Shown one piece after another: positions 4,976 through 55,005 of a stretch of DNA of 64,000 nt (position 1 is the stretch's first letter; each line of letters begins with the position of its first letter). The translations under genes were made by a program, and so were the position numbers. The stretch is from Bacteroidota bacterium (GTDB taxonomy: Bacteria; Bacteroidota; Ignavibacteria; UBA10030; SZUA-254), in contig JBIOHP010000005.1 in the NCBI GenBank assembly GCA_044449065.1, forward strand, positions 107,374 to 171,373, read 5' to 3'. The notes under the pieces are model-generated. The model did no database searches, had not been told where the DNA came from, and saw only the letters and a list, made by a program, of their open reading frames with translations.

Positions 4976-5716
4976 TTATTTCCTATCAACCAACAGATTC
5001 TCCGGAATCATTTCCAGAGGAATAAAACTTTTAATGAGCGATGTGAATATCTTCTGACCATCGGTGTGACGCAAAACCGCATCGGAGGCGCGTTCGGGAT
5101 GCGGCATCATTCCCATTACATTGCCGGCGATATTCATAATGCCGGCGATGTTGCGTGATGAACCGTTTGGATTTGCGGCATCAGTCAGTGTTCCGTCCAA
5201 TTCGCAATATCTGAACAATACCTGCCCGTTTTCTTCGAGCATATCGAGCGTCTTGTCATCCGCATAATAGTTGCCTTCGCCATGCGCAATGGGTAACTGG
5301 AGGATATCTCCTTGCCGGCATACCGATGTAAATCTTGAATGAATATTCTCAACTCTCAGATTAACGAACTTGCAGGCGAATGATAAATTTGCATTCCGCA
5401 ACAATGCTCCCGGCAAGAGCCCTGCTTCACAGAGCGTTTGGAAGCCGTTGCAAATTCCGATAACGACGCCCCCGGAATTGGCAAACCGGATAACTTCTTT
5501 CATGATCGGCGAAAAACGGGCAATAGCGCCGCAGCGAAGATAATCCCCGTAAGAGAATCCCCCCGGCAAAATGACGATATCGGAATTCTCCAGAGAAGAA
5601 TTCTTATGCCAGAGAAAGGCGACGTCTTGATGGAAAATATCCTTGAAAACATAATATGCGTCATGATCGCAATTAGAACCGGGAAAAACAACTAAGCCGA
5701 CCTTGAGCCGATCCAT
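4976..5716 (-). CDS. purQ: phosphoribosylformylglycinamidine synthase subunit PurQ (glutaminase)
   Basis: N-terminus KVGLVVFPGSNCDHD and a class I glutamine amidotransferase Cys/His layout. It lies adjacent to purS. Confidence 0.9.
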   Translation of the reverse strand: MDRLKVGLVVFPGSNCDHDAYYVFKDIFHQDVAFLWHKNSSLENSDIVILPGGFSYGDYLRCGAIARFSPIMKEVIRFANSGGVVIGICNGFQTLCEAGLLPGALLRNANLSFACKFVNLRVENIHSRFTSVCRQGDILQLPIAHGEGNYYADDKTLDMLEENGQVLFRYCELDGTLTDAANPNGSSRNIAGIMNIAGNVMGMMPHPERASDAVLRHTDGQKIFTSLIKSFIPLEMIPENLLVDRK

Positions 5717-33285: not shown

Positions 33286-36015
33286 ATGATTGGGCAGACG
33301 ATATCTCACTACAAAATTCTTGAGAAATTGGGAGAGGGCGGAATGGGTGTTGTCTACAAAGCCCAGGATACAAAACTTGATCGCTTCGTCGCGTTAAAAT
33401 TCTTATCTCCTCATCTTGCCTCTTCGGAACAGGATAAGTCCCGTTTCACCCAGGAGGCGAAAGCCGCAGCGGCGCTCAATCATCCGAATATTTGCACGAT
33501 CATCGATATTCAGGAAAATGACGGCGTCATGTTTATCGTAATGGAATTTGTTGATGGTCAGACATTGCGCGAGAAAAAGGCATCCATCACGTTTAAACAG
33601 GCAATCGATATTGGAATTCAGATAGCGGAGGGTTTAGGCGCGGCTCATGATAAAGGCATCGTGCACAGGGATATCAAACCCGAAAACATCATGATCCGAA
33701 GGGATGGCATCGCGCAAATAATGGACTTTGGACTTGCGAAACTTCGCGGCAGCGTTACGCGGCTGACAAAAGAGGGGAGCACAATCGGCACGGCAGGATA
33801 TATGTCGCCGGAACAAGTGCAGGGACAGGATATCGACCACAGGTCGGATATATTTTCGTTTGGAGTTTTACTGTATGAACTTATCACCGGTCAGCTTCCG
33901 TTTAAGGGCGTACATGAAACTGCATTGATGTATGAAATTGTGAATATGGAAGCGCCGCCGATGTCTTCGATTAAACCGGACATAGAGGCAACCCTCGACG
34001 CGATTGTTCTGGAATGTTTAGAAAAAGATCCCAACGAACGAACGCAATCTGCCAAGCAGGTATCCATAGATTTAAAACATTTTAAACGCGAGTCAACGCG
34101 ACAGCGGGTCAGCCGCATCACAACGGCAAAGCCGGTACAATCATATTCAAATGTTAAGCAACCGGAACCGCAGAACATCCAGCTTTCCAAATCCACCGGA
34201 TTGGCAGGTAAAATACCCTGGTTAATTTCCATCGTCTGCCTGATTGGGTTCTCAGTATTTGCCGGTCTTTATTTGAAGCGCCAGAATATTGATCCCCAGA
34301 TGGTACAGTCATATATTCTCCCGCCCGAAAATTCCAGTTTTGCCACCCATTCCGGAAACACGGGAGAAGGACACCTTGCGCTTTCACCGGACGGAAGCAT
34401 GCTCGCCTTCGTGTGCGCTGATAGTGCGGGCAAAACTCACTTAATGGTCCGCCCTTTAAATTCTATCGATGCAAAAGAACTTCCTTCGACCCAGGAGGCG
34501 GGCTATCCGTTCTGGTCGCCGGATAATAGATACATTGGTTTTTTCCAGGGTGGAAAACTGAAAAAAATTGAAGCGTCCGGCGGACCTTCGTTGACGATAT
34601 GCGACGCAGCGGACGGACGCGGCGCATCATGGAATCAAGATGGAATAATCATACTGGCGCCAAACCCGGCCGGACCAATTTATCAGGTATCCGAGGCAGG
34701 CGGAACCCCTGTCGCCATCACAAAATTTGACACCACAAGACATACCCACTCGCACCGCTGGCCCTTCTTCCTGCCGGATGGAAAACATTTCCTCTATTTT
34801 TCACGATCAAGTTTTGGCGGCGTTGAACGGGAAGAGGACGCTCTTTATACCGCCTCCCTGGACGGAAAAGATAATAAACGACTTATACCTGCAAAGGCAA
34901 ATGTGGCATACGTTTCGGGTATGTTGATCTATTTAAGCGATAAAACGCTAATGGCGCAACGCTTCCAACCTGATAAACTTGAACTTATCGGGGAAGCCAA
35001 GCCGATAGCCGAACCTATTGAGTATGACCTGGATTATAATAGAGCGATTTTTACTGTGTCCCAGAATGGCATCCTCTGTTATCAATCACGAAGCACAAAA
35101 GTGGGCTGGCAGTTGGAATGGCTTGACCGCAAAGGCAATTTGGTGGGTAAAATTGGCGAACCTGCCCAGATAGGATCTGCGGCGCTATCACCCGACGAAA
35201 AAAAAATCGCCTATGATGTCTATGATCCTCAATCAAAAAATAAGGATATATGGATTTATGAGCTCGCGCGGGGAATTAAAACAAGATTTACCTTCGATCC
35301 CTCTGTAGACGAATTGCCAAATTGGTCGCCCGATGGCAGCAAGATTATATTTCATTCAGATCGAAAGGGACACTATGATTTGTACCAAAAAACAACTGAC
35401 GGAGAAGGGAGCGAGGATGTACTCCTTGAATCTCCAGAAGCGAAATTTCCTTACGATTTCTCGAGCGACGGTAAATATTTCACCTACTCAGCCAACGATT
35501 CCCATACCGGATCGGACATCTGGATTCTTCCACTCACCGGCGACAGAAAACCAATCAGATTAGTGCAATCGGAATTCGATGATGATGTTTCACACTTTTC
35601 AAGGGATATGCGGTGGATTTCCTACCGGTCGAATGAATCAGGCAACTACGAACTTTATGTCCGACCATTTCTGGATGCTGAAGGGAAAATAGCAACTACC
35701 CAGGCGCGTAAATGGCAAATATCCGTGAATGGAATCGCGGTCAATTCAAGTGAGGAATGGAGCAAAAATGGGAAGGAATTTTATTACCTCTCCCAGGATA
35801 ATAAATTTATCGCGGTTGAGGTCAGGACAAACGGATCATCGTTCGAGATTGGCAACTCAAACGAATTGTTTGACGTCAAATCGAATACCGCTATTTCTTT
35901 TGTCGATGCAAGCGCTGACGGAAATAAATTTCTTTTCATCGTCACTGTAGGCGGAGAGGTTCATCCTCCCATTACACTGGTGACAAATTGGGATAAGGAA
36001 CTTAAGAACCAATGA
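33286..36015 (+). CDS. receptor Ser/Thr protein kinase K1: Hanks-type kinase, TM helix, PD40/TolB-like beta-propeller
   Basis: Gly-loop LGEGGMGVVYKA, VALKFL, HRDIKPENIM, DFG and GTAGYMSPE. TM helix IPWLISIVCLIGFSVFAGLYL. Repeated SPDG/FSPDG propeller motifs, 909 aa. Confidence 0.9.
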   Translation: MIGQTISHYKILEKLGEGGMGVVYKAQDTKLDRFVALKFLSPHLASSEQDKSRFTQEAKAAAALNHPNICTIIDIQENDGVMFIVMEFVDGQTLREKKASITFKQAIDIGIQIAEGLGAAHDKGIVHRDIKPENIMIRRDGIAQIMDFGLAKLRGSVTRLTKEGSTIGTAGYMSPEQVQGQDIDHRSDIFSFGVLLYELITGQLPFKGVHETALMYEIVNMEAPPMSSIKPDIEATLDAIVLECLEKDPNERTQSAKQVSIDLKHFKRESTRQRVSRITTAKPVQSYSNVKQPEPQNIQLSKSTGLAGKIPWLISIVCLIGFSVFAGLYLKRQNIDPQMVQSYILPPENSSFATHSGNTGEGHLALSPDGSMLAFVCADSAGKTHLMVRPLNSIDAKELPSTQEAGYPFWSPDNRYIGFFQGGKLKKIEASGGPSLTICDAADGRGASWNQDGIIILAPNPAGPIYQVSEAGGTPVAITKFDTTRHTHSHRWPFFLPDGKHFLYFSRSSFGGVEREEDALYTASLDGKDNKRLIPAKANVAYVSGMLIYLSDKTLMAQRFQPDKLELIGEAKPIAEPIEYDLDYNRAIFTVSQNGILCYQSRSTKVGWQLEWLDRKGNLVGKIGEPAQIGSAALSPDEKKIAYDVYDPQSKNKDIWIYELARGIKTRFTFDPSVDELPNWSPDGSKIIFHSDRKGHYDLYQKTTDGEGSEDVLLESPEAKFPYDFSSDGKYFTYSANDSHTGSDIWILPLTGDRKPIRLVQSEFDDDVSHFSRDMRWISYRSNESGNYELYVRPFLDAEGKIATTQARKWQISVNGIAVNSSEEWSKNGKEFYYLSQDNKFIAVEVRTNGSSFEIGNSNELFDVKSNTAISFVDASADGNKFLFIVTVGGEVHPPITLVTNWDKELKNQ

Positions 36016-38917: not shown

Positions 38918-39132
38918 ATGATCGGAAAAACTATCTCACACTACAGGATTCTCGAGAAGCCCCGCCATAAAGACGGCGGGCAAGTTGGCGAGGGCGGAAT
39001 GTCCCAAAATCACCCACGCGCGTTTTTTGCAAGTGGTTGTGATTTTGCGGATCTCCCGTTGTTTGGATTCCGCTTTGACAACGGGATTCCAAAAAGCGGA
39101 ACCGTTGAGCGAAGCGAGAACGGGAACCCCCT
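38918..39132 (+). promoter_or_regulatory. kinase leader element L3 (variant A)
   Basis: uORF MIGKTISHYRILEKPRHKDGGQVGEGGMSQNHPRAFFASGCDFADLPLFGFRFDNGIPKSGTVERSENGNPL, with its stop overlapping the K3 ATG. Confidence 0.7.
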
Positions 39133-41805
39133 ATGATTGGACAGTCAATATCTCATTACAAAATCCTTGAGAAGCTGGGAGAAGGCGGGATGGGGATCGT
39201 CTATAAAGCAGAGGATACTAACCTCAAAAGAATTGTCGCATTGAAATTTTTACCCAGCCATCTTTCTGCATCGGAAGCCGACAAAGCGCGATTTATACAG
39301 GAAGCACAGGCGGCATCCTCGCTTAATCATCCCAATGTCTGCACTATTCACGATATCCAGGAACACGACGGGCAAATGTTCATCGTGATGGAATTTGTCG
39401 ACGGTCAAACATTACGGGAAAAAAAATCATCCATTACCATGAAACAGGCAATCGATATCGGCATCCAGATCGCTGATGGGCTTGCCGCCGCACATGAGAA
39501 AGGGATTATCCACCGGGATATCAAACCCGATAATATCATGGTCCGGAAGGATGGCATCGTTCAAATTATGGATTTCGGGTTGGCCAAGCTCAGAGGTGTC
39601 TCGAAATTAACGAAAGAAGGAAGCACAATCGGAACTGCAGGGTACATGTCGCCTGAACAAGTGCAGGGTTTAGAGACGGATCATCGTTCGGATATATTTT
39701 CTTTCGGTGTACTTTTATTCGAGCTTTTAACGGGACAACTCCCATTTAAAGGTGTCCATGAAACAGCGATTGCATACGAAATTGTAAACGTCGATGCTCC
39801 CCCTATGTCATCCATTAAACCTGAAATCGATTCAGCGCTTGATGCTATTGTTCTGGAATGTCTTGCAAAAGAACCTTCGGAACGATCCCAATCAATTGCG
39901 GAAGTTGCTAAAGATCTGCGGCGGTACAAACGGGAATCAAGCAGGCAGCATCTGAGCAGGTCATTCCCCGCGCAATCTGCAATACGTCAGATAGGCGCCG
40001 TGACTTCTGCCCCCACTGTTGCGATCACTCCTCAACGAAGCATTCTTCCGTGGGGAATTGCAGGGATGCTTCTCATTGTAACATCCATATTGCTATTTCG
40101 TCAATATTTCGCCTCGGCTGAACGTCAGCCCCTATTAATAGCTTCCATCGCTCCGCCCGATAGCGTATACATTCACTCGTACGGTCAGGCAGCAGGTCCC
40201 CCGGCAATTTCACCTGACGGCAGGACAATCATGTATTGTGGAGTGGCTTCTAACGGAATTACCCAGATTTATGTTCGTTCGCTTCATGAAAATGTTACGC
40301 GAGCACTGGATGGAACAAACTACGCGCAATATCCATTCTGGTCGCCGGATGGAAAACAGATCGGATTCTTCGCCGGAGGGAAAATCAAGAAGATAGAGGT
40401 CGATGGCGGTTCTCCTGTAACGGTTTGTGTTGCCATCAATCCCCGCGGCGGGACATGGAGCAGCGCTGGAGTGATTCTCTTCGCCCCCGATTACCAATCG
40501 CCGATCTCCCGGGTATCCGCCGATGGCGGGATTCCGGAGCCATTAACGAAATTAGACACCTCGCGCAATGAAGTATCGCATCGATGGCCCTTTGCTTTGC
40601 CTGATGGAAAACACTTTCTCTATTTTTCGCGTATAGCTAACAATTCCGGTCCCGCGGAGGGTCATGCCGTCTATGCTTCGTCGCTCGATGGAAAAGATAA
40701 CAGGTTGGTTCTCCGCACCAATTCCAATGCCGTCTACGCCGCCGGGTACTTGCTTTTTGTCCGGGGATCGACATTGATGGCGCAACAATTCGATCAATCC
40801 TCCGTGCAGCTAAAGGGCGATCCCGCTCCATTGGCGGAAGGTGTCATTGATGATCCCGGATTTAATCAATCGGTTTTTTCCGCATCGCAAACGGGGATCC
40901 TGATTTACCAGCCAGGAAATGTACGAGCCGGAGCAAAATTATTAATCACCGATCTCAACGGTAAAATAATTTCAACCCTAGGTGAGAGCATAGAAAACTT
41001 TCGCGTCCGTTATGCTCCTGACGGAGAGCATATCATTGCCAGCATTTTCGATCCTAAGTTGTTGCGATTAAATATCTGGGAATATGATCTCCATACCGGC
41101 GGTAGGAACCGGATCACCTCAGGCACCGGCGAAGATAACGCGATCCCCTCTCCGACCAGCGATGATATTATTTATTCTTCCCAGCGAACCGGCGTTTGGA
41201 ATTTGTACGAAAAATCGATGAGTGGTCAGGGTGGTGATTCAGCCCTTCACCCATCCCCAAGCTATGATTTATCTCTTGATTGGTCGCGCGACGGTTCCCT
41301 TGTATTATTTTCGAGAGTAGAACCATCTAAAACCCAAGCAGATTTGTGGATCATGCAAATGAAGAATGCACATGAACAATATCCGGTGGTAAACACGGAG
41401 TTTGACGAAGTTGGGGGGCGGTTCTCACCCGATGGTAAATGGATCGCTTATGTTTCGAACGAGAGCGGCGACTACGAAGTTTATATAAAATCAGCCGTGA
41501 AAACGGAAACTCAAAGTTGGAAGATTTCATCAGCAGGCGGATACTTTCCCTGCTGGGCAGGCAGCAGCAATGAATTGTGTTATGTGAGCAGTGAGAATAA
41601 AATGATGCTTGTCACTCTCCGGTACAAAGATAAGATGGTCGAGGTTGCGAGTATCCATTCTTTATTTAGTGTACCCGCATTTTTGGAGAGTTATGATATC
41701 TCCCCCAATGGAAAAACGATGGTAATCAATCGCAGTCTTGAAATGCAAAAATCGGCGCCGCTGACTATGCTCGTCAACTGGCAGGAGGAGTTGAAACAGA
41801 AATGA
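39133..41805 (+). CDS. receptor Ser/Thr protein kinase K3: kinase, TM, PD40 beta-propeller
   Basis: LGEGGMGIVYKA, HRDIKPDNIM, DFG, TM helix ILPWGIAGMLLIVTSILLF, PD40 repeats, 890 aa. Confidence 0.9.
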   Translation: MIGQSISHYKILEKLGEGGMGIVYKAEDTNLKRIVALKFLPSHLSASEADKARFIQEAQAASSLNHPNVCTIHDIQEHDGQMFIVMEFVDGQTLREKKSSITMKQAIDIGIQIADGLAAAHEKGIIHRDIKPDNIMVRKDGIVQIMDFGLAKLRGVSKLTKEGSTIGTAGYMSPEQVQGLETDHRSDIFSFGVLLFELLTGQLPFKGVHETAIAYEIVNVDAPPMSSIKPEIDSALDAIVLECLAKEPSERSQSIAEVAKDLRRYKRESSRQHLSRSFPAQSAIRQIGAVTSAPTVAITPQRSILPWGIAGMLLIVTSILLFRQYFASAERQPLLIASIAPPDSVYIHSYGQAAGPPAISPDGRTIMYCGVASNGITQIYVRSLHENVTRALDGTNYAQYPFWSPDGKQIGFFAGGKIKKIEVDGGSPVTVCVAINPRGGTWSSAGVILFAPDYQSPISRVSADGGIPEPLTKLDTSRNEVSHRWPFALPDGKHFLYFSRIANNSGPAEGHAVYASSLDGKDNRLVLRTNSNAVYAAGYLLFVRGSTLMAQQFDQSSVQLKGDPAPLAEGVIDDPGFNQSVFSASQTGILIYQPGNVRAGAKLLITDLNGKIISTLGESIENFRVRYAPDGEHIIASIFDPKLLRLNIWEYDLHTGGRNRITSGTGEDNAIPSPTSDDIIYSSQRTGVWNLYEKSMSGQGGDSALHPSPSYDLSLDWSRDGSLVLFSRVEPSKTQADLWIMQMKNAHEQYPVVNTEFDEVGGRFSPDGKWIAYVSNESGDYEVYIKSAVKTETQSWKISSAGGYFPCWAGSSNELCYVSSENKMMLVTLRYKDKMVEVASIHSLFSVPAFLESYDISPNGKTMVINRSLEMQKSAPLTMLVNWQEELKQK

Positions 41806-42016
41806 TCGGAAAAACCGTTTCCCATTATAAGATTATCGAGAAGCCCCGCCACAAAAACGGCGGGCAAGTCGGCGAGGGCGGAATGTCCCAAACTTTCCCA
41901 CGAGCGCAGCGAGTGGATGAAAGTTTGAGGATCTCCCGTTGTTTGGATTCCGCTTTGACAACGGGATTCCAAAAAGCGGAACAGCTGGAACGCAGTGGAA
42001 GCGGGAGGCGTGGACT
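41802..42016 (+). promoter_or_regulatory. kinase leader element L4 (variant B)
   Basis: The uORF ATG overlaps the K3 stop (ATGA). Sequence ...cccgccacaaaaacggcgggcaagtcggcgagggcggaatgtcccaaactttcccacgagcgcagcgagtggatgaaagtttgaggatctcccgttgtttggattccgctttgacaacgggattccaaaaagcggaacagctggaacgcagtggaagcgggaggcgtggactATG. Confidence 0.7.
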
Positions 42017-44392
42017 ATGATTGGGCAGACAATATCTCATTACAAAATTCTTGAGAAATTGGGTGAAGGCGGCATGGGCATCGTCTATAAAGCCCAGGAT
42101 ACCAGACTTGATCGAATTGTCGCATTGAAATTTTTACCCGTCCATCTGACTTCGAATGAAGCCGAGAAAGCGCGTTTTTTGCAGGAAGCAAAAGCCGCAG
42201 CGACGCTCAATCATCCTCACGTCTGCACTATCTATGGTATTAGCGAGCATGATGATCACGAGGGTGGTATTCAGCAATTTATTGAGATGGAATATGTGGA
42301 CGGCGAAACGCTCCGCAAAAAAATACCACTTGCCAAAACCGACGATGCGTATAAGTATGCAATACAGATCGGCGATGCGTTGCAGGAAGCGCATTCAAAA
42401 GGAATTGTTCACCGTGACGTGAAATGCGAAAATATCATGGTGAATTCAAAGAATCAAATCAAAGTAATGGATTTCGGCCTGGCGAAGCTCAAAGGATCGT
42501 TAAAGCTCACAAGGACCTCGAGCACGGTCGGCACGCTTGCGTATATGGCGCCGGAACAGATTCAAGGCGGTGATGTGGACGCGCGATCCGATATTTTCTC
42601 ATTCGGTATTGTTCTGTTCGAGATGCTGACGGGCAAGACGCCCTTCCGGGGTGAACATGATGCGGCGATGATGTACTCCATTGTGAATGAAGAACCAGAG
42701 ACGGTTGCGAAATATAAACCAGACGTCTCACCCGAGGTGGAACGGATTATCAAACGAGCTCTCGAAAAAGACCCCGATGACCGGTATCAATCGGCGGCGG
42801 ATATGGTAAGTGAGATCCGGCGCGTCCAGAGGCAATCAACGAGAATCCTTCGTCCTTCAATGGTTGATATGCCGACGCTCCATCCAACTTTTTCTCATGA
42901 GAACCCGGTTGCGAAGTCCACCCCATCATCGAAGAAGAAAACAATTCTCATTTCTGCACTAATAGGGGCAGCACTTATTATTGCCCTTGCAGTCTACCTA
43001 TTAATGGGGCATCAACAAGCAATCGGATCGCTGGCGGTGCTGCCATTCGAGAATGTCGGCGCTTCGCCGGATCAAGAATATCTTTCCGATGGTATCACAG
43101 AAAATATTATCAACAACCTGACAAAAATATCCTCCCTCAGAGTTGTTCCGCGCAGTACGGTTTTCCGTTTTAAGGGAAAAGAACTCGATGTTCAGGATAT
43201 CGGTTCTAAGTTAAATGTTAATGCCGTGCTCACAGGACGAATCACCCATCGCGGACAATCTCTCGATGTTCAAGTAGACCTGATTGATATCAAAAGGGAA
43301 TCGCAATTGTGGGGCAACAATTATCAATCCTCTGAAGCGGAAATTCTCTCGCTCCAGGAGCAAATCACCAAGGACGTTTCGTCAAAATTAGGATTAGGAC
43401 TCTCCACAGATCTTCGCGAGGGACTCGCAAAACGCTCAACCGATAACACACAAGCATATCAATTATATCTCCAGGGACGTTACTGGTGGAATAAACGCAC
43501 GAGTGAGTCTATAGATCGCGCCATCAATTTCTTCAATCAGGCAATTGCGCTCGATTCTACGTACGCTCTCGCTTATGCAGGTTTGGCAGATTGTTACATC
43601 ATCCAATCTCAGTACTCCGGAATACCGACACGGATAACTATTCCCCTGACAAAAAATGCCGCCCGGAAAGCCCTCGAACTCGATAATTCATTGGCAGAAG
43701 CGCACACTACGCTCGCATTTTGCCTTTACGAAGCATGGAAATACGATGAGGCAGAAAAAGAATTTAAACAGGCAATCGCTCTTAATCCCAAGTATCCGAC
43801 GGCTTATCACTGGTACAACATAATGCTCGTAAGAACCGGACGAGCTGATGAAGCATGGAAAATTATTCAGCAAGCTCACGATCTTGATCCATTTTCACCG
43901 GTTATTACATTAAATGTGGGCGCTATATTTTTCCTGCGCGGGCAATTTGAAGAAGCACTCACCTATCTTAAAAAAAGCATTGAGCTTGACCCGTCATTCG
44001 CCCCGGGATATGCCTGGATTGGATTAACCTATGACCGCATGAATAACGTAACAGAGGCTCTTCCTCAACTCGAAAAAGCATTAGAGCTATCCGGCCGATC
44101 GGCTGAATGCATTTCGTATCTCGGATATTTTTATGGTAAAAGAGGAATGCGTGATAAAGCAATCGAGTTATTAAAAGAAAACGAAGAACGGTATAAAGCA
44201 GGCACCGGCGCTGCCTACAATATCGCTCGTATCTATGCAGGGCTTGGCGACAAGGATAATGTTTTAAAATGGCTCGAACAGGACGTCGCCGATCAAAGCA
44301 CCTGGACCGGAGAACTCAAAACCGATTATGTGTGGGATAGCGTTAAAACCGATCCGCGTTTTATTGCATTATTACATAAAGTTGGATTATAG
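42017..44392 (+). CDS. receptor Ser/Thr protein kinase K4: kinase, TM, periplasmic alpha/beta module (LPFxN...YxSDGxTExxI), TPR repeats
   Basis: LGEGGMGIVYKA, HRDVKCENIM, DFG. TM helix ILISALIGAALIIALAVYLL. Then AVLPFENVGASPDQEYLSDGITENIINNL followed by TPR-like repeats, 792 aa from the ATG at 42017. Confidence 0.88.
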   Translation: MIGQTISHYKILEKLGEGGMGIVYKAQDTRLDRIVALKFLPVHLTSNEAEKARFLQEAKAAATLNHPHVCTIYGISEHDDHEGGIQQFIEMEYVDGETLRKKIPLAKTDDAYKYAIQIGDALQEAHSKGIVHRDVKCENIMVNSKNQIKVMDFGLAKLKGSLKLTRTSSTVGTLAYMAPEQIQGGDVDARSDIFSFGIVLFEMLTGKTPFRGEHDAAMMYSIVNEEPETVAKYKPDVSPEVERIIKRALEKDPDDRYQSAADMVSEIRRVQRQSTRILRPSMVDMPTLHPTFSHENPVAKSTPSSKKKTILISALIGAALIIALAVYLLMGHQQAIGSLAVLPFENVGASPDQEYLSDGITENIINNLTKISSLRVVPRSTVFRFKGKELDVQDIGSKLNVNAVLTGRITHRGQSLDVQVDLIDIKRESQLWGNNYQSSEAEILSLQEQITKDVSSKLGLGLSTDLREGLAKRSTDNTQAYQLYLQGRYWWNKRTSESIDRAINFFNQAIALDSTYALAYAGLADCYIIQSQYSGIPTRITIPLTKNAARKALELDNSLAEAHTTLAFCLYEAWKYDEAEKEFKQAIALNPKYPTAYHWYNIMLVRTGRADEAWKIIQQAHDLDPFSPVITLNVGAIFFLRGQFEEALTYLKKSIELDPSFAPGYAWIGLTYDRMNNVTEALPQLEKALELSGRSAECISYLGYFYGKRGMRDKAIELLKENEERYKAGTGAAYNIARIYAGLGDKDNVLKWLEQDVADQSTWTGELKTDYVWDSVKTDPRFIALLHKVGL

Positions 44393-49247: not shown

Positions 49248-49682
49248 ATGACAACGGTTAGAAATATCATACAAGCTAAGGGGAGCAACGTCTGGGCGAT
49301 TGGTCCCACGGCTTCCGTGTTTGAAGCCCTCAAATTGATGGCGGAAAAAAATGTTGGGGTATTACTTATCAGGGAAGGAGAAGCGGTGGTGGGGATATTA
49401 TCGGAGCGCGATTACGCCCGCAAGATTGCCCTAAAGGGATTGACTTCGCACAAGGTGTTAGTTAAAGAAATCATGACAGCGAAGGTCATATCCATCGCGC
49501 CAGAACAATCCATCGACGACTGTATGGCTATTATGCTGGAAAAACATATCCGCCATCTTCCTGTCATGGAAAACAACCTTTTAAGAGGGATCGTCTCGAT
49601 CGGCGATGTGGTTAAAGCTATTGTCGCTGAACGGGAGCAAACAATTGAACACCTGACAAACTACATAACCGGAAACCGGTAG
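49248..49682 (+). CDS. CBS-domain pair protein
   Basis: 144 aa with two CBS motifs (…GVLLIREGEAVVGILSERD… and …HLPVMENNLLRGIVSIGD…), inserted between K6 and leader L6. Confidence 0.75.
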   Translation: MTTVRNIIQAKGSNVWAIGPTASVFEALKLMAEKNVGVLLIREGEAVVGILSERDYARKIALKGLTSHKVLVKEIMTAKVISIAPEQSIDDCMAIMLEKHIRHLPVMENNLLRGIVSIGDVVKAIVAEREQTIEHLTNYITGNR

Positions 49683-49685
49683 GCA

Positions 49686-49900: not shown

Positions 49901-52285
49901 ATGATTGGGCAGACAATATCTCATTACAAAATTCTTGAGAAATTGGGTGAGGGTGGAATGGGCATCGTCTACAAGGCAGAAGACACGCGTCTTCACCGGA
50001 TGGTGGCTATAAAGATATTGCCGACTCACCTCGCCGTTCACGGCGAGGAGCGTGAACGCTTTACCCTTGAGGCGCAAGCGGCTTCAGCGATTAACAATCC
50101 GAACATCTGTACGATTTATGAAATTGATGAAACGAACGATGATACGTTTATCGTGATGGAATATGTCGAAGGGAGTACGGTTCGCGAATGGATTCAGAAG
50201 AAACTCAGTGAAACGGAAGGATTCCGCAAGACGGGACTAACAGAAGCGATTCACCTTGCTATCCAGATTGCCGAGGGACTTGATAAGGCGCACGAAAAGG
50301 GAATCGTTCACCGCGATATTAAGTCGGAGAACGTGATGGTCACCCCGGATGGCCGCGCGAAGATCATGGATTTTGGATTGGCGAAACTTCGCGGCGTCAG
50401 TAAGCTTACAAAAGTAGGCAGCACGGTCGGAACACTTGCCTATATGTCTCCCGAGCAGATCGAAGGACTCGAAACAGACCACCGCACAGACATTTTCAGT
50501 TTCGGCGTCCTGCTCTATGAAATGATCACGGGGAAACTTCCGTTTCTCGCCGCCCACGAAGCGGCAATCATGTACGAGATCATCAATGTGGTGCCGCAGC
50601 AACCCTCGCAGGTGCGCCAGACCGTCGACTTGGAGCTCGACCGGATAGTCATGAAGTGCATGGAAAAGAATCGTGACGAACGATATCAATCGTTGAAAGA
50701 AGTTGTCGTTGATCTTCGACGATTTAGCCGAGACTCCTCAGGTAAAACGATGGCTCGTCCGGCTACCATGAGTGATCACGCCCACCAGAACAAGAGTGCT
50801 TCTTCACCACGGTCATCAAGAACGAATATTGCAGCGATTGCAGGCAGCGTAATTCTTATAAGCGCTTCACTCTCATATTACTACTTCACACACCACCCAT
50901 CCTCAATCGATTCGCTCGCAGTGCTTCCGTTCGTCAACGCCAGCCCCGATTCAAGCATGGAATATCTCAGCGATGGAATCACCGAGTCTCTCATCAATTC
51001 TCTCTCGCAACTCCCGGACTTAAAAGTGATGTCGAGGAATTCGGTTTTTCGTTATAAGGGAAGCAATGCCGATCTTCAAACGATCGGACGGGAAGTCGGC
51101 GTCCATGCGATACTATTGGGGCGCGTGTTGGAACGTGGGGATAATCTCAGCATCAGTGCCGAGCTGATCAATGTATCGGATAACAGCCATCTCTGGGGCG
51201 AGCAGTACAACAGGAAATCTGCAGACCTCCTCGCCGTTCAGGAAGAAATAACACGCGATATTTCAGATAAATTGAAGCTTCGCCTCGCCGACAAGGACGA
51301 AAAACATTCCGCCAAAGCATCAACCGAGAACACGGAAGCATACCAATTGTACCTGAAAGGTCGTTATCACTGGAACAGGCGTTCCGCCGACGAGCTCCGG
51401 AAAGCGATTGATTACTTCCAGCAGGCGGTTGAATCAGACCCAAATTATGCCCTCGCCTATTCAGGAATTGCAGATGCATACGGAGTCCTCGGGTGGTTTG
51501 AATATGGCATAGTGTCTCCGCGCGATGCGTTCCCCAAAGCCAAAGCCGCAGCGCTCAAAGCCGTGGCAATCGATCCGGGGCTGGCTGAAGGATATGCCTC
51601 TCTTGCCTTTGCGTACCAGCACGATCATGACACACTTGCCGCGTCTCAGAACTACAAACGGGCGATTGAACTTAATCCTTCATATCCGACCGCCCATCAT
51701 TGGTATTCCGAGGAGTTGATGAGCGAGGGGAAAAAGGATGAATCTATCGAAGAGATAAAGCGCGCGCTCACCCTCGATCCGCTTTCGTTGATTATTACCC
51801 GCGATGTGGGCTGGATGTATTACTTCGCCCGCCGGTACGACGAAGCGAGTGTATACATTCAAAAATCGTTGGATCTCGATTCGAATTTTTCGCGGGGCCA
51901 TCTTCTCCTTGGTCTGTGCCGCATCCAGCAGGGAGCGCTTGGCGATGCCATAACCGAATTCAAAACAGCTTCGAAATTCTCGAACGAGACTATCAGTACC
52001 GCCCTCCTTGCCTATTGTTATGCTAAAGCTGGAAAAACCACCGAGGCAAAAGATATTCTCCGGAGTATGCTTTCACTTTCCTCATCGAAGTATGTTTCGC
52101 CCGGCGCAATTGCGCTGGTCTATATGGGCCTCGGAGATCGGGAAAAGATTTTCGAGTGGCTTAACAAAGCTGTCGACGATCAATCGGGAATTTTTGGTTT
52201 TGTAAAGGTTGATCCGCTCTTTGATGGCATCAGGAATGATCCCCAATTCGTCGCATTGCTGCACAAGGGAGGGATCCCTCTATGA
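49901..52285 (+). CDS. receptor Ser/Thr protein kinase K7: kinase, TM, alpha/beta module, TPR
   Basis: LGEGGMGIVYKA, HRDIKSENVM, DFG, a TM helix, AVLPFVNASPDSSMEYLSDGITESLINSL, TPR repeats. Confidence 0.9.
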   Translation: MIGQTISHYKILEKLGEGGMGIVYKAEDTRLHRMVAIKILPTHLAVHGEERERFTLEAQAASAINNPNICTIYEIDETNDDTFIVMEYVEGSTVREWIQKKLSETEGFRKTGLTEAIHLAIQIAEGLDKAHEKGIVHRDIKSENVMVTPDGRAKIMDFGLAKLRGVSKLTKVGSTVGTLAYMSPEQIEGLETDHRTDIFSFGVLLYEMITGKLPFLAAHEAAIMYEIINVVPQQPSQVRQTVDLELDRIVMKCMEKNRDERYQSLKEVVVDLRRFSRDSSGKTMARPATMSDHAHQNKSASSPRSSRTNIAAIAGSVILISASLSYYYFTHHPSSIDSLAVLPFVNASPDSSMEYLSDGITESLINSLSQLPDLKVMSRNSVFRYKGSNADLQTIGREVGVHAILLGRVLERGDNLSISAELINVSDNSHLWGEQYNRKSADLLAVQEEITRDISDKLKLRLADKDEKHSAKASTENTEAYQLYLKGRYHWNRRSADELRKAIDYFQQAVESDPNYALAYSGIADAYGVLGWFEYGIVSPRDAFPKAKAAALKAVAIDPGLAEGYASLAFAYQHDHDTLAASQNYKRAIELNPSYPTAHHWYSEELMSEGKKDESIEEIKRALTLDPLSLIITRDVGWMYYFARRYDEASVYIQKSLDLDSNFSRGHLLLGLCRIQQGALGDAITEFKTASKFSNETISTALLAYCYAKAGKTTEAKDILRSMLSLSSSKYVSPGAIALVYMGLGDREKIFEWLNKAVDDQSGIFGFVKVDPLFDGIRNDPQFVALLHKGGIPL

Positions 52286-55005
52286 TCGGACAAACTATTT
52301 CGCATTACAAAATTCTTGAGAAGTTAGGTGAAGGCGGCATGGGCGTCGTCTATAAAGCCCAGGATACAAAACTTGATCGCTTTGTCGCGCTGAAGTTCCT
52401 CCCCTCCCAACTCAATGCCTCCGAACAGGACAAGGCGCGGTTCACGCAAGAGGCGAAATCCGCGGCAGCGCTGAACCATCCGAATGTCTGTTCGATCATC
52501 GACATACAGGAACACGATGGAACGATGTTTATCGTGATGGAGTTTGTGGATGGCCAGACCCTCCGCGACAAAATGAAGACCGCCGGAAGTGCGATTGAAG
52601 GTTCTACACTTCCCTTGAAACAGGCGATCGATATCGGAATCCAGATATCAGATGGGCTTGCTGCGGCGCATGAAAAAGGAATTGTACACCGGGACATCAA
52701 ACCGGAAAATATCATGATCCGCAAAGACGGCATCGCGCAGATTATGGATTTCGGATTGGCAAAACTTCGCGCGAGCGGCAGCAAGATAACCCGTCTTACA
52801 AAAGAAGGCAGCACGGTAGGCACAGCAGGATATATGTCGCCGGAGCAGATTCAGGGACAGGACACCGACCCCCGCTCGGATATTTTCTCTCTGGGAGCGC
52901 TGTTGTACGAACTATTTACGGGGGAATTACCCTTTAGAGGAGTTCATGAAACCGCGTTAATGTACGAAATCGTCAACGTTGACCCGGCGCCATTGTCGGC
53001 GGTGAAACCGGAAATCGATTCTTCACTCGATGCAATTGTCTTAGAGTGCCTTGCCAAATATCCCTCGGAACGGTTCCAGTCTGTCGCAGAGGTTGGCAAG
53101 GAACTGAGGAGATTCAAGCGCGAATCATCACGGCAAAAAGTTAGCAGAATAACCTCTGCCCGCCCGGCATACGTTCAATCCGCAACCATTCCGGTAATGG
53201 CGCCAACGCCTGCTCCTGTTCAGATTCAACAACAGACCCGTCTGCCCTGGATTGTGAGTGGACTCCTTTTTCTTGTTGCTGTGGCGTCAATCATTTTTCA
53301 TTTCCTTACTCCCCCTTCACATGTGGAAAATCGAGTCACGAGATCATTGATTTTACCCCCCGCGAAAACAAATTTTAATATGCAGGTCGGCGGGCACCTT
53401 GCCATCTCCCCCGATGGCAATAGCATCGCATTTGTTGGAACCGATTCCAGCGGCGTCGACCACGTTTGGGTCCGTCCAATCAATTCGTTAACGGCTATCT
53501 CGCTCTCTGGAACAGAAGGCGCAACATACCCCTTCTGGTCCCCCGACAGCCGCACAATAGGATTCTTTGCGGGCGGCAAGCTCAAGAAGATCGAAGCAAC
53601 AGGCGGACCTGTTCTTACGATCTGCGATGCTTCCGATGGGCGCGGGGGAACATGGAATGAGGCGGGCATTATCGTGTTTTCCGCTGGTCCGAGCGATCCG
53701 CTCTCCAAGGTATCATCAGCCGGAGGAATCCCGGCGAGGATAACTGTATTGGATACTTCCCACCATGAAAATAGTCACCGCTGGCCCTGGTTTCTACCCG
53801 ATGGAAAACATTTTCTCTATACGACTCAATCTCAGACGACAGGCGGAACGGATAATGACGCAATCAGAATTTCAACCATCGATTCCTCCATGAACAAAAC
53901 ATTGATCCCTGGCAATTCGAATACGTGTTTTGTTAATGGGCATATTTTATTTATCCGGCAAGGGACATTGATGGCGCAACCATTTGATCCCGGAAAACTC
54001 GAAATGACCGGTGACGCTATTCCAATCGCGGAACAAATCCAATATGGAGCGGCGCGCAGCAGGGGGATGTTTTCCTCATCGTTGAACGGAGTGCTTATTT
54101 TTCAGAGCGGCGAAAATCAAACGCAACGGGTTGCCATATTCGACCGCACCGGCAACCGGACGCATCTTGTTACCGATCTCAATGCGTCTAATCCGAAGTT
54201 TTCACCGGACCAAAGTCACATCGTCTACCATATTATTGATCCCCAGTCCCGCAACGCCGATATCTGGGTTCACGAACTTTCGAGGGGAGTGAGTTCCCGA
54301 TTAACATTTAACCCTGCGTTTGAAATACAACCGTTTTGGTCTCCTCACGGGGACACCGTTGTTTTCGGCTCCAACCGGAAGGGCGTGTACAATCTCTACA
54401 TCAAAAGCGCAAACGGTGCAGGCGATGAACAACTCATTTTGGAATCGAACCGCGACAAGTATGTCAGCGACTGGTCGCGCGATGGACGGTATTTGGCATT
54501 CACCACGACCGGAGATCCAAAAACAAAAGCTGATCTCTGGGTGCTTCCGTTTTTTGGCGACCGGAAACCGATACCTTTTGTCCAAACTGAGTTCAATGAA
54601 GGAAACGGCAGTTTTTCCCCGGATTCTCGCTGGATTGCCTATCAATCCGATGAAAGCGGAAGAAGTGAAATCTATGCCCGCTTACTCGATGGTTCCGGAG
54701 GAAAGTTCCAGATATCGACAAATGGCGGTAGAAAACCGTTCTGGAAATTAGATGGCAGGCAGCTCTTTTTCACCTCAACCGACAGAAAATTACAGGTTGC
54801 GTACATTAAGGAAAACGCATCTTCCCTTTTTGTCGACAGTGTAGCCACATTGTTTGATTTTGAATCGCGCGGTATCATAGCTAACAATATCGACGATGTT
54901 AGCAACGACGGCAAGCAAGTTCTCGCCCTAGTTACGGACTCCAAACAAACTTCGACGCCCATTACACTTGTCGTGAACTGGGACGAGGAGTTGAGGAAGA
55001 AATGA
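52282..55005 (+). CDS. receptor Ser/Thr protein kinase K8: kinase, TM, PD40 beta-propeller (no leader; its ATG overlaps the K7 stop)
   Basis: LGEGGMGVVYKA, HRDIKPENIM, DFG, TM helix LPWIVSGLLFLVAVASIIF, PD40 repeats. ATGA overlap with K7 at 52282-52285. Confidence 0.9.
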   Translation: MIGQTISHYKILEKLGEGGMGVVYKAQDTKLDRFVALKFLPSQLNASEQDKARFTQEAKSAAALNHPNVCSIIDIQEHDGTMFIVMEFVDGQTLRDKMKTAGSAIEGSTLPLKQAIDIGIQISDGLAAAHEKGIVHRDIKPENIMIRKDGIAQIMDFGLAKLRASGSKITRLTKEGSTVGTAGYMSPEQIQGQDTDPRSDIFSLGALLYELFTGELPFRGVHETALMYEIVNVDPAPLSAVKPEIDSSLDAIVLECLAKYPSERFQSVAEVGKELRRFKRESSRQKVSRITSARPAYVQSATIPVMAPTPAPVQIQQQTRLPWIVSGLLFLVAVASIIFHFLTPPSHVENRVTRSLILPPAKTNFNMQVGGHLAISPDGNSIAFVGTDSSGVDHVWVRPINSLTAISLSGTEGATYPFWSPDSRTIGFFAGGKLKKIEATGGPVLTICDASDGRGGTWNEAGIIVFSAGPSDPLSKVSSAGGIPARITVLDTSHHENSHRWPWFLPDGKHFLYTTQSQTTGGTDNDAIRISTIDSSMNKTLIPGNSNTCFVNGHILFIRQGTLMAQPFDPGKLEMTGDAIPIAEQIQYGAARSRGMFSSSLNGVLIFQSGENQTQRVAIFDRTGNRTHLVTDLNASNPKFSPDQSHIVYHIIDPQSRNADIWVHELSRGVSSRLTFNPAFEIQPFWSPHGDTVVFGSNRKGVYNLYIKSANGAGDEQLILESNRDKYVSDWSRDGRYLAFTTTGDPKTKADLWVLPFFGDRKPIPFVQTEFNEGNGSFSPDSRWIAYQSDESGRSEIYARLLDGSGGKFQISTNGGRKPFWKLDGRQLFFTSTDRKLQVAYIKENASSLFVDSVATLFDFESRGIIANNIDDVSNDGKQVLALVTDSKQTSTPITLVVNWDEELRKK

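Follow-up and report, generated by a model that had tools for sequence, protein, structure and literature searches.

The 64,000-nucleotide (nt) stretch analyzed here, subsequently designated the window, is part of contig JBIOHP010000005.1 of a Bacteroidota bacterium (assembly GCA_044449065.1, positions 107,374 to 171,373, forward strand). Between 33 and 60.5 kb it carries ten tandem Ser/Thr kinase genes, K1 to K10, which share 27–55% pairwise identity and comprise kinases with PD40 β-propellers (K1, 2, 3, 8 and 10) and with TPR domains (K4, 5, 6, 7 and 9). A "leader" of ~191–215 nt is located upstream of eight of the ten genes, K5 and K8 being devoid of it, and these leaders (L1 to L8) together with the hairpin repeat contained therein are the subject of this work. 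A first, sequence-only reading had proposed that they form a translational riboswitch or attenuator and had sorted them into two variants. The assignment of L1, L3, L5 and L6 to variant A and of L2, L4, L7 and L8 to variant B proved correct: variant A precedes K1, K3, K6 and K7, and variant B precedes K2, K4, K9 and K10. By this comparison the leaders are either younger than the kinases or were homogenized after the kinases had diverged, while simple co-duplication with the kinases is excluded, because the variants cut across the PD40 and TPR groups and do not follow the kinase phylogeny. Identity among the leaders is mosaic, amounting to 70% in the dead N-terminal copy and to 97% in a 49-nt core, and the live kinases of the leader-bearing paralogs share 89% identity over codons 1–15 and 73% over the next 24 codons.

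The hairpin complementarities described for the leaders are present, and the first hairpin, HP1, is a real structure that covaries, but the leader is not a plain 5' untranslated region. Each leader lies inside a kinase open reading frame (ORF). It opens with a start codon and a truncated copy of the kinase N-terminus (codons 1–14/20; MIGxTISHYKILEK followed by GEGGM), continues with HP1 (48–54 nt) and with a GC hairpin, HP2, that runs into GGAGG, and closes with ...CTATGAT, i.e. with the new ATG at which the second, complete kinase N-terminus begins. Upstream ORFs (uORFs) of 64–72 amino acids (aa) are open in all eight leaders of the window and terminate with the TGA of an ATGA placed on the kinase start, and the start codons of three of the eight also overlap the stop of the kinase before them. 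An in-frame insert encoding PRHKDGGQV is present in seven of these leaders and missing from L2. A search with the uORF of L3 (uORF3) retrieved 27 small ORFs in other assemblies with the common layout ...GEGGM-SQNHPRA(F/L)FASGCDF(A/E)DP. Three uORFs are annotated as hypothetical proteins, P0001–P0003 (NCBI ACHQQQ_04580, _04565 and _14405): P0001 matches uORF6 of the window, P0002 matches uORF5, and P0003 represents a ninth leader on another contig.

The DNA behind the shared uORF peptide is the hairpin TCCCAAA-N4-CCCAC...AGYGG-N7/8-TTTG-N-GGATC (HP1). The variant A and variant B hairpins quoted previously are present within it at 39008–39046 and 41892–41926, respectively. Scanning for the fixed pattern, which limits this census, matched seven copies in the window, 49 loci in GTDB genomes and 78 metagenome loci, giving 129 unique instances with 111 distinct sequences. 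The GTDB carriers are Ignavibacteria and "Bacteroidota" metagenome-assembled genomes (MAGs), two Zixibacteria, one of which is a chromosome of 2.7 Mb, and some MAGs with the label Chitinophagales. The viral contigs scanned contained no HP1 repeat, and a covariance-model scan of the window found no copy beyond the eight leaders. In the HP1 alignment 98.9% of the cells are standard pairs, and eight pairs are changed on both sides in 239 cells, which was equalled by 0 of 500 shuffles; when the partners were slid by 1–3 columns as a control, only 28–44% were paired. Most of the double changes sit in columns that the pattern leaves free (8–11 with 42–45 and 19–20 with 30–31), and therefore the covariation was not imposed by the search. 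HP1 is strand-asymmetric, as it possesses conserved, non-complementary GA/GA plus a bulge of 2–3 nt, and the covariance model assigned 51.5–71 bits to the window copies on the plus strand and 12–21 bits on the minus strand. A kink-turn geometry of the GA/GA motif was considered and dismissed, the bulge not being adjacent. Rfam returned no relevant match for leaders or repeat, neither at the gathering threshold nor at E ≤ 10, and we did not find the HP1-HP2 repeat described in the literature, which was searchable to a limited extent.

The differences between variants A and B had been taken as compensatory changes that keep the same hairpins. Pairing of the outer arms is indeed preserved through double changes, with the exception of L1, in which one pair is broken (ATGAT). 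L5 is a diverged A copy, the stem of which is lengthened by a further compensated change (CAACATCAC/GTGATGTTG). However, the variant B HP1 is identical to a copy in an unrelated contig (L106), so A and B are, on the evidence of this match, two older, pre-existing subfamilies of the repeat and not the product of in-place compensatory evolution in a kinase regulator. If this view is right, within-genome "compensatory" differences between repeat subfamilies should not be taken for signs of a gene-specific riboswitch.

HP1 and HP2 share two bases, the final ones of HP1 being the first of HP2, and covariation between genomes is seen in the HP2 arms (TCCGCC/GGCGGA, TCCCGCT/AGCGGGA, TCCGAC/GTCGGA and TCCCGAC/GTCGGGA). 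In most copies the 3' arm extends into GGAGG, with three of the five Shine-Dalgarno (SD) bases predicted to be paired; folding predictions for 45 short leaders gave three of five SD bases paired in about 30 of them and none in about 10. Immediately 5' of the kinase ATG the sequence is GC-rich and structured. In the window, the segments close to the ribosome-binding site (RBS) are as quoted before, namely AACGGGA at –14 to –8 of the K3 ATG and AGCGGGAGG at –17 to –9 of the K4 ATG, and the minimum free energy (MFE) folds are predicted to mask the SD-like segment. The complementarity of a CUCCCGYU strand to the SD-proximal RRCGGGAG, to which the sequence-only reading had drawn attention, is borne out, as the family-wide HP2. 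A clear SD is missing upstream of most of the 23 non-leader gene starts in the window, which have A/T-rich upstream regions instead. Such A/T-rich, SD-poor starts correspond to Bacteroidota-type initiation, and the GGGAGG of variant B is conspicuous against this background.

About 76 of the 129 HP1 copies show the same kinase architecture, the order elsewhere being truncated N-terminus, HP1, HP2, ~8 nt and the ATG of the full kinase. The N-terminus is truncated mostly after codon 20, in other copies at 13, 49/52 or 76 nt, and at 81/84 nt in copies carrying an extra in-frame insert. At locus L047 (3969–4790), the real kinase comes after five successive truncated kinase starts (65, 48, 51, 54 and 47 aa); for each of the last four mini-ORFs the stop lies in an ATGA at the start that follows, and all five carry different HP1 stem variants. 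Most other copies adjoin tRNA genes (Val, Pro, Gly, Arg, Ala, Ile and Glu) on either strand, so the covarying hairpin is not specific for kinases. In 24 of 36 rows there is a complete tRNA no more than about 600 nt away; contig ends cut several of the others. Here part of the tRNA (10–79 nt, mostly 96–100% identical), which can be either end of it, is duplicated next to the element, and one intact tRNA survives. The junctions map to tRNA nt 10, 15, 29–40 or 71, several of them in the anticodon stem-loop, and one case of this type is found in a 16S-tRNA-Ile spacer. Copies in rRNA operon spacers were seen in L054 (5446–5493) and L036 (1263–1310), before tRNA-Ile or tRNA-Ala, with 22 nt or 10 nt of duplicated tRNA start upstream of the repeat. 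One and the same MAG may hold copies at kinases and at tRNA genes (e.g. DATDRF01 with L015, L039, L042 and L047), and therefore the repeat has moved between contexts. Additional GC hairpins of small size, of the type CCCGCC..GGCGGGAC, were noticed as inserts in dead target copies and in one live N-terminus, the sites being L120 (minus strand, downstream of HP1 at 5190–5241) and the dead tRNA copies of L015, L034, L039, L043 and L103; the PRHKDGGQV insert of the window leaders is of this type as well.

Conservation of the uORF was assessed in 75 leaders of the kinase type for which positions could be assigned to both starts. The distance from ATG to ATG is 2 mod 3 in 67 of them (p = 7.5e-24) and in 27 of 35 distinct architectures (p = 1.4e-7), and in 61 of the 75 the uORF ends exactly at the ATGA overlap. 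Among 73 distinct leaders, the uORF frame is free of stop codons from the junction to the kinase ATG in 63 cases, whereas the remaining two frames are so in 12 and 23. Leader lengths are 140, 143, 146, 149 ... 191 and 215 nt, mostly differing in steps of three. The peptide itself shows no such conservation: the frame in which HP1 is translated differs between junction offsets 52 and 60, and that of the 49-nt core differs between uORF3 (variant A) and uORF4 (variant B). What is conserved, to judge from these alignments, is translation of the uORF and the position of its stop codon rather than its peptide.

Taken together, we consider it probable that the leaders are composite insertions of the hairpin repeat in kinase 5' ends and that the kinases are translated via termination-reinitiation. 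According to this explanation, the element would insert with direct duplication of its target, i.e. a kinase N-terminus or a tRNA, such that one intact gene copy survives, and the original kinase start with 14–20 codons would become a short uORF. Ribosomes would begin at the original start, often coupled to the stop codon of the upstream kinase, read through HP1 and HP2 and thereby melt HP2, terminate at the UGA of the AUGA atop the regenerated kinase AUG, and finally reinitiate on the kinase. That ribosomes on the uORF would open the pairing downstream had already been suggested in the sequence-only reading and agrees with a uORF that is kept free of stops as far as the start codon of the kinase, on which it terminates. 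With the 3' arm of HP2 predicted to cover part of GGAGG and GC-rich structure directly upstream of the start, the kinase would probably be made mainly by reinitiating ribosomes. The interrupted gene would stay under its original translational control, and an array would be read as a relay of coupled ORFs. Spread of the leaders among paralogs by gene conversion, with the dead N-terminus as the arm on one side and the kinase domain on the other, is suggested by the mosaic pattern of leader identity.

Several points weigh against this explanation. Whereas architecture, covariation, distribution and the constancy of frame and stop position can be read off the sequences, the coupling by termination-reinitiation is itself a step that we infer from them. 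In about 10 of the 45 short leaders, a separate, unpaired GGAGG is located downstream of HP2, and therefore independent initiation may be possible in those. Since the kinase consensus (ATG ATY) already contains ATGA, the frame by itself suffices to produce the overlap. Moreover, many leaders share ancestry, so that the counts given above are not independent, for which the test with distinct architectures is only a partial remedy. Most of the related loci are short-read metagenome contigs, in which repeats can yield chimeras. The ORF lists around seven odd copies, which were inspected without domain searches, contained nothing obvious that resembles a transposase or recombinase. Finally, for the first duplication at a new target the insertion model offers only candidate routes, namely a long staggered cut with subsequent selection, a looped-out circle that integrates again, or template switching.

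Alternatively, the repeat could be selfish or neutral and play no role in expression, the kinase simply using its own SD and ATG, which we regard as unlikely. As part of this alternative, the uORF frame would be kept merely to prevent upstream ribosomes from overrunning or from fusing to the kinase. The copies at tRNA genes, where translation is irrelevant, the free GGAGG in some leaders and the further small hairpin inserts gained by dead copies would be in agreement with it. However, frame and stop position are strongly conserved, the structure 5' of the ATG is GC-rich in a genome mostly lacking SD sequences, and chains of up to five ATGA-linked mini-ORFs stay open, all of which speaks against this alternative.

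The riboswitch proposal rests on a 49-nt core (CTCCCGTTG...AAAGCGGAA) comprising hairpins H1 and H2, which was found as described at 39053–39101 and 41933–41981. The core occurs eight times at ≤2 mismatches (0 expected by chance), varies at only three positions among these copies, and is absent from all 136 related loci. Comparison with the tails of simpler relatives (L097, GGATCCCGCTGAAACGCAGTGGAAGCGGGAGG; L021, GGATCCCGCTGAGCGAAGCGAAAGCGGGAGG) reveals that the 5' arm of HP2 is interrupted by a ~46-nt insertion (TTGTTTGG...GGAAC[C/A]G), which is seen only in the genome of the window and holds the whole core except the leading CTCCCG, a part of the HP2 5' arm. Because the insertion splits this arm, the pairing between the 5' arm of H1 and the SD-proximal segment is the ancestral HP2. 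By position, H2 is the insertion's own hairpin and H1 a new competitor within the H2 loop. The insertion would probably add no more than H1 as a competitor for the anti-SD strand. H1 and H2 had been regarded as unable to form together, but their interleaved a-b-a'-b' order fits an H-type pseudoknot with loops of 6, 2 and 7 nt.

A translational riboswitch or attenuator responding to a ligand or signal, in which H1 and H2 are the states exposing or hiding the kinase RBS, appears decidedly improbable to us. The alternation of a masked and a free SD is plausible to the extent that both folds are nearly isoenergetic, enforcement of H1 costing 0.2–3.0 kcal/mol relative to the SD-masked MFE fold. Furthermore, the 97% identity of the core contrasts with about 73% for the kinases just downstream, and a single substitution in L6 preserves the affected H2 pair as G-U. 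However, near-identity of the core is also the expected outcome of recent spread or gene conversion. RNAalifold predicted the first hairpin, H2 and the long-range pairing CUCCCGU:RCGGGAG from the eight copies, but not H1. All six pairs changed on both sides in this alignment are within the first hairpin, and none belongs to H1 or H2. The ninth leader, which is available as a peptide only (FRFYNWIPKSG), implies CAACTGG, that is an uncompensated break of H1, and in addition a compensated change in HP1. No terminator-like site is present on the plus strand of any leader, and no regulatory codons are conserved in the leader peptide, in which the core frames differ between A and B and the HP1 frames between offsets 52 and 60. 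Together with the lack of an Rfam match, the absence of the core from the related loci and its location in an insertion within an older hairpin, these results speak against the proposal, and ligand sensing is supported by nothing that we found.

About equally improbable is a role at the DNA level, in which recombination at the repeat and its direct repeats would shuffle or homogenize the 5' ends of kinase genes, or switch genes through deletions between the repeats. The mosaic identity pattern, the independence of the A/B variants from kinase phylogeny and the occurrence of the strand-asymmetric HP1 on either strand relative to tRNA genes could be accommodated. The same applies to L042, L079 and L122, in which >500 nt of upstream sequence, the dead N-terminus and the element are nearly identical and three different kinase bodies follow, L079 having one extra unit relative to the other two. 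This pattern, examined for insertion polymorphism, is ambiguous, though, since it may reflect recombination at the repeat or a chimera of metagenome assembly, and recombination would explain spread but not the conserved frame and the ATGA overlap. Least probable of all is an element for RNA processing or stability that, similar to REP (repetitive extragenic palindromic) hairpins, segments or protects a polycistronic kinase mRNA: the length and stability of the hairpins, their position between genes that probably form an operon and the L030 copy directly after a stop codon would suit it, but the hairpins belong to a uORF that is translated, with ribosomes that would unfold them, and the duplicated targets are left unexplained. 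Programmed frameshifting or bypassing was discarded as a slippery site is lacking and the kinase possesses a start of its own, and variable repeats of a diversity-generating retroelement were discarded as the differences are not adenine-specific.

Returning to composite insertion and reinitiation, it is conceivable, albeit doubtful, that HP1-HP2 represents an undescribed small mobile element of FCB-group bacteria that targets multi-copy "safe-haven" genes, namely tRNA genes and a large kinase family, and repairs its own damage by target duplication, an RBS hairpin and a stop/start relay. If so, the target would be duplicated up to the gene end, protein genes would additionally receive the RBS-masking hairpin and the stop/start overlap, and the interrupted gene would be expressed through a relay of coupled mini-ORFs. 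Should the explanation by insertion and reinitiation be right, it would show how a non-coding repeat can survive inside genes without being an intron or intein, by rebuilding the gene end and handing on the ribosome. The HP1-HP2 element measures ~80–200 nt and has no ORF of its own, so it encodes no recombinase. Insertion of the IS200/IS605 type was considered and rejected, there being no conserved tetranucleotide 5' of HP1. Locus L009, which also carries the repeat, contains a 95-aa GIY-YIG ORF between two kinase genes, with small flanking hairpins (1793–2080); a link of this ORF to the spread of the element is only a guess.

Table 1. Coordinates of leader elements and neighboring features in the window.
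Feature	Position	Strand	Remarks
uORF3	38918–39136	+	72 aa; truncated N-terminus duplicate, then inserted element; TGA overlaps K3 ATG (ATGA)
Dead copy of kinase codons 1–14	38918–38959	+	MIGKTISHYRILEK; differences from other leaders mostly at third codon positions
Small GC hairpin insert, in frame	38960–38986	+	CCCGCC-ATAAAGAC-GGCGGG; encodes PRHKDGGQV
GEGGM remnant of dead N-terminus	38987–39001	+	
HP1 of L3	39002–39053	+	variant A; 52-nt imperfect hairpin; covariance model 70.8 bits
5' arm of ancestral HP2	39053–39060	+	CTCCCGTT; anti-SD strand, also 5' arm of H1
Secondary insertion, ~46 nt	39059–39104	+	H2 (TTCCGCTTT/AAAGCGGAA); H1 3' arm CAACGGG in H2 loop
HP2 loop and 3' arm, L3	39105–39132	+	loop GAGCGAAGCGAG; 3' arm AACGGGA (39119–39125); adjoins K3 start; weak SD-like GGGA
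K3	39133–41805	+	Ser/Thr kinase with PD40 β-propeller repeats
uORF4	41802–42020	+	72 aa; ATG overlaps K3 stop, TGA overlaps K4 ATG
HP1 of L4	41886–41933	+	variant B; 48 nt
49-nt H1/H2 core of L4	41933–41981	+	100% identical to L3 copy
HP2 3' arm, L4	42000–42008	+	AGCGGGAGG; overlaps SD-like GGGAGG; 8 nt before K4 ATG (42017)
HP1 of L1	33155–33206	+	variant A
HP1 of L2	36072–36119		variant B
HP1 of L5	46687–46738		variant A, diverged
HP1 of L6	49770–49821		variant A
HP1 of L7	55086–55133		variant B
HP1 of L8	57708–57755		variant B
Stop/start overlap K1-uORF2	36012–36015		ATGA
Stop/start overlap K3-uORF4	41802–41805		ATGA
Stop/start overlap K7-K8	52282–52285		ATGA
Stop/start overlap K8-uORF7	55002–55005		ATGA
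Small ORF between K6 and uORF6	49249–49683		stop 2 nt before uORF6 ATG

As far as gene layout can tell, translation seems to be chained over much of the ten-gene array. The small ORF between K6 and uORF6 bears a likeness to CBS domains, as judged by eye.

Among known systems, leader-peptide attenuators and translational riboswitches likewise have a short uORF, alternative pairings (1:2 and 1:4) and an RBS-proximal strand. In contrast, the present leaders lack regulatory codons, a terminator and a conserved aptamer, and what would switch in them is an insertion confined to this genome. Integrative elements with tRNA genes as their targets bring along a replacement for the gene segment, resulting in the direct repeats attL and attR (attachment sites). 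The architecture here is similar in that an intact gene copy and a displaced partial one lie on opposite sides of the element, and in that several junctions are in the anticodon stem-loop. However, the repeat is ~80–200 nt long and comes without an integrase, its junctions are also at tRNA nt 10, 15 and 71 and at several kinase codons, and either tRNA end can be duplicated.

[quoted passage not shown] HP1-HP2 resembles them by being small, non-coding, palindromic, multi-copy, dispersed within and between genomes and tolerated within genes. Of the features that define a MITE, it has the multi-copy, dispersed and non-coding nature and, HP1 being an imperfect palindrome, the inverted-repeat ends, but no short target-site duplication of fixed length; instead, the flanking duplications range from 10 to >80 nt and rebuild the target gene. 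Unlike the Rickettsia elements it is not translated as part of a functional protein, and, with regard to REP/REPIN elements, which are characterized by an extragenic location and association with a RAYT gene, its kinase copies are intragenic by origin; neither a GTAG motif nor a linked transposase was seen.

Termination-reinitiation at an overlapping ATGA with a hairpin-masked RBS is familiar from the coat-replicase pair of MS2 and from many operons. Here, too, the upstream ORF stops on the downstream start, a hairpin is predicted to cover part of the SD, and the frame matters while the peptide does not. The repeat would account for the many small "hypothetical proteins" of the MIGxTISHYKILEK...SQNHPRA type annotated in Ignavibacteria-like MAGs, and the leaders would provide a natural test bed for reinitiation in bacteria that use few SD sequences. 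What sets them apart from the familiar cases is that the upstream ORF is the decapitated start of the same gene followed by a repeat that is read through, in chains of one to five such mini-ORFs.

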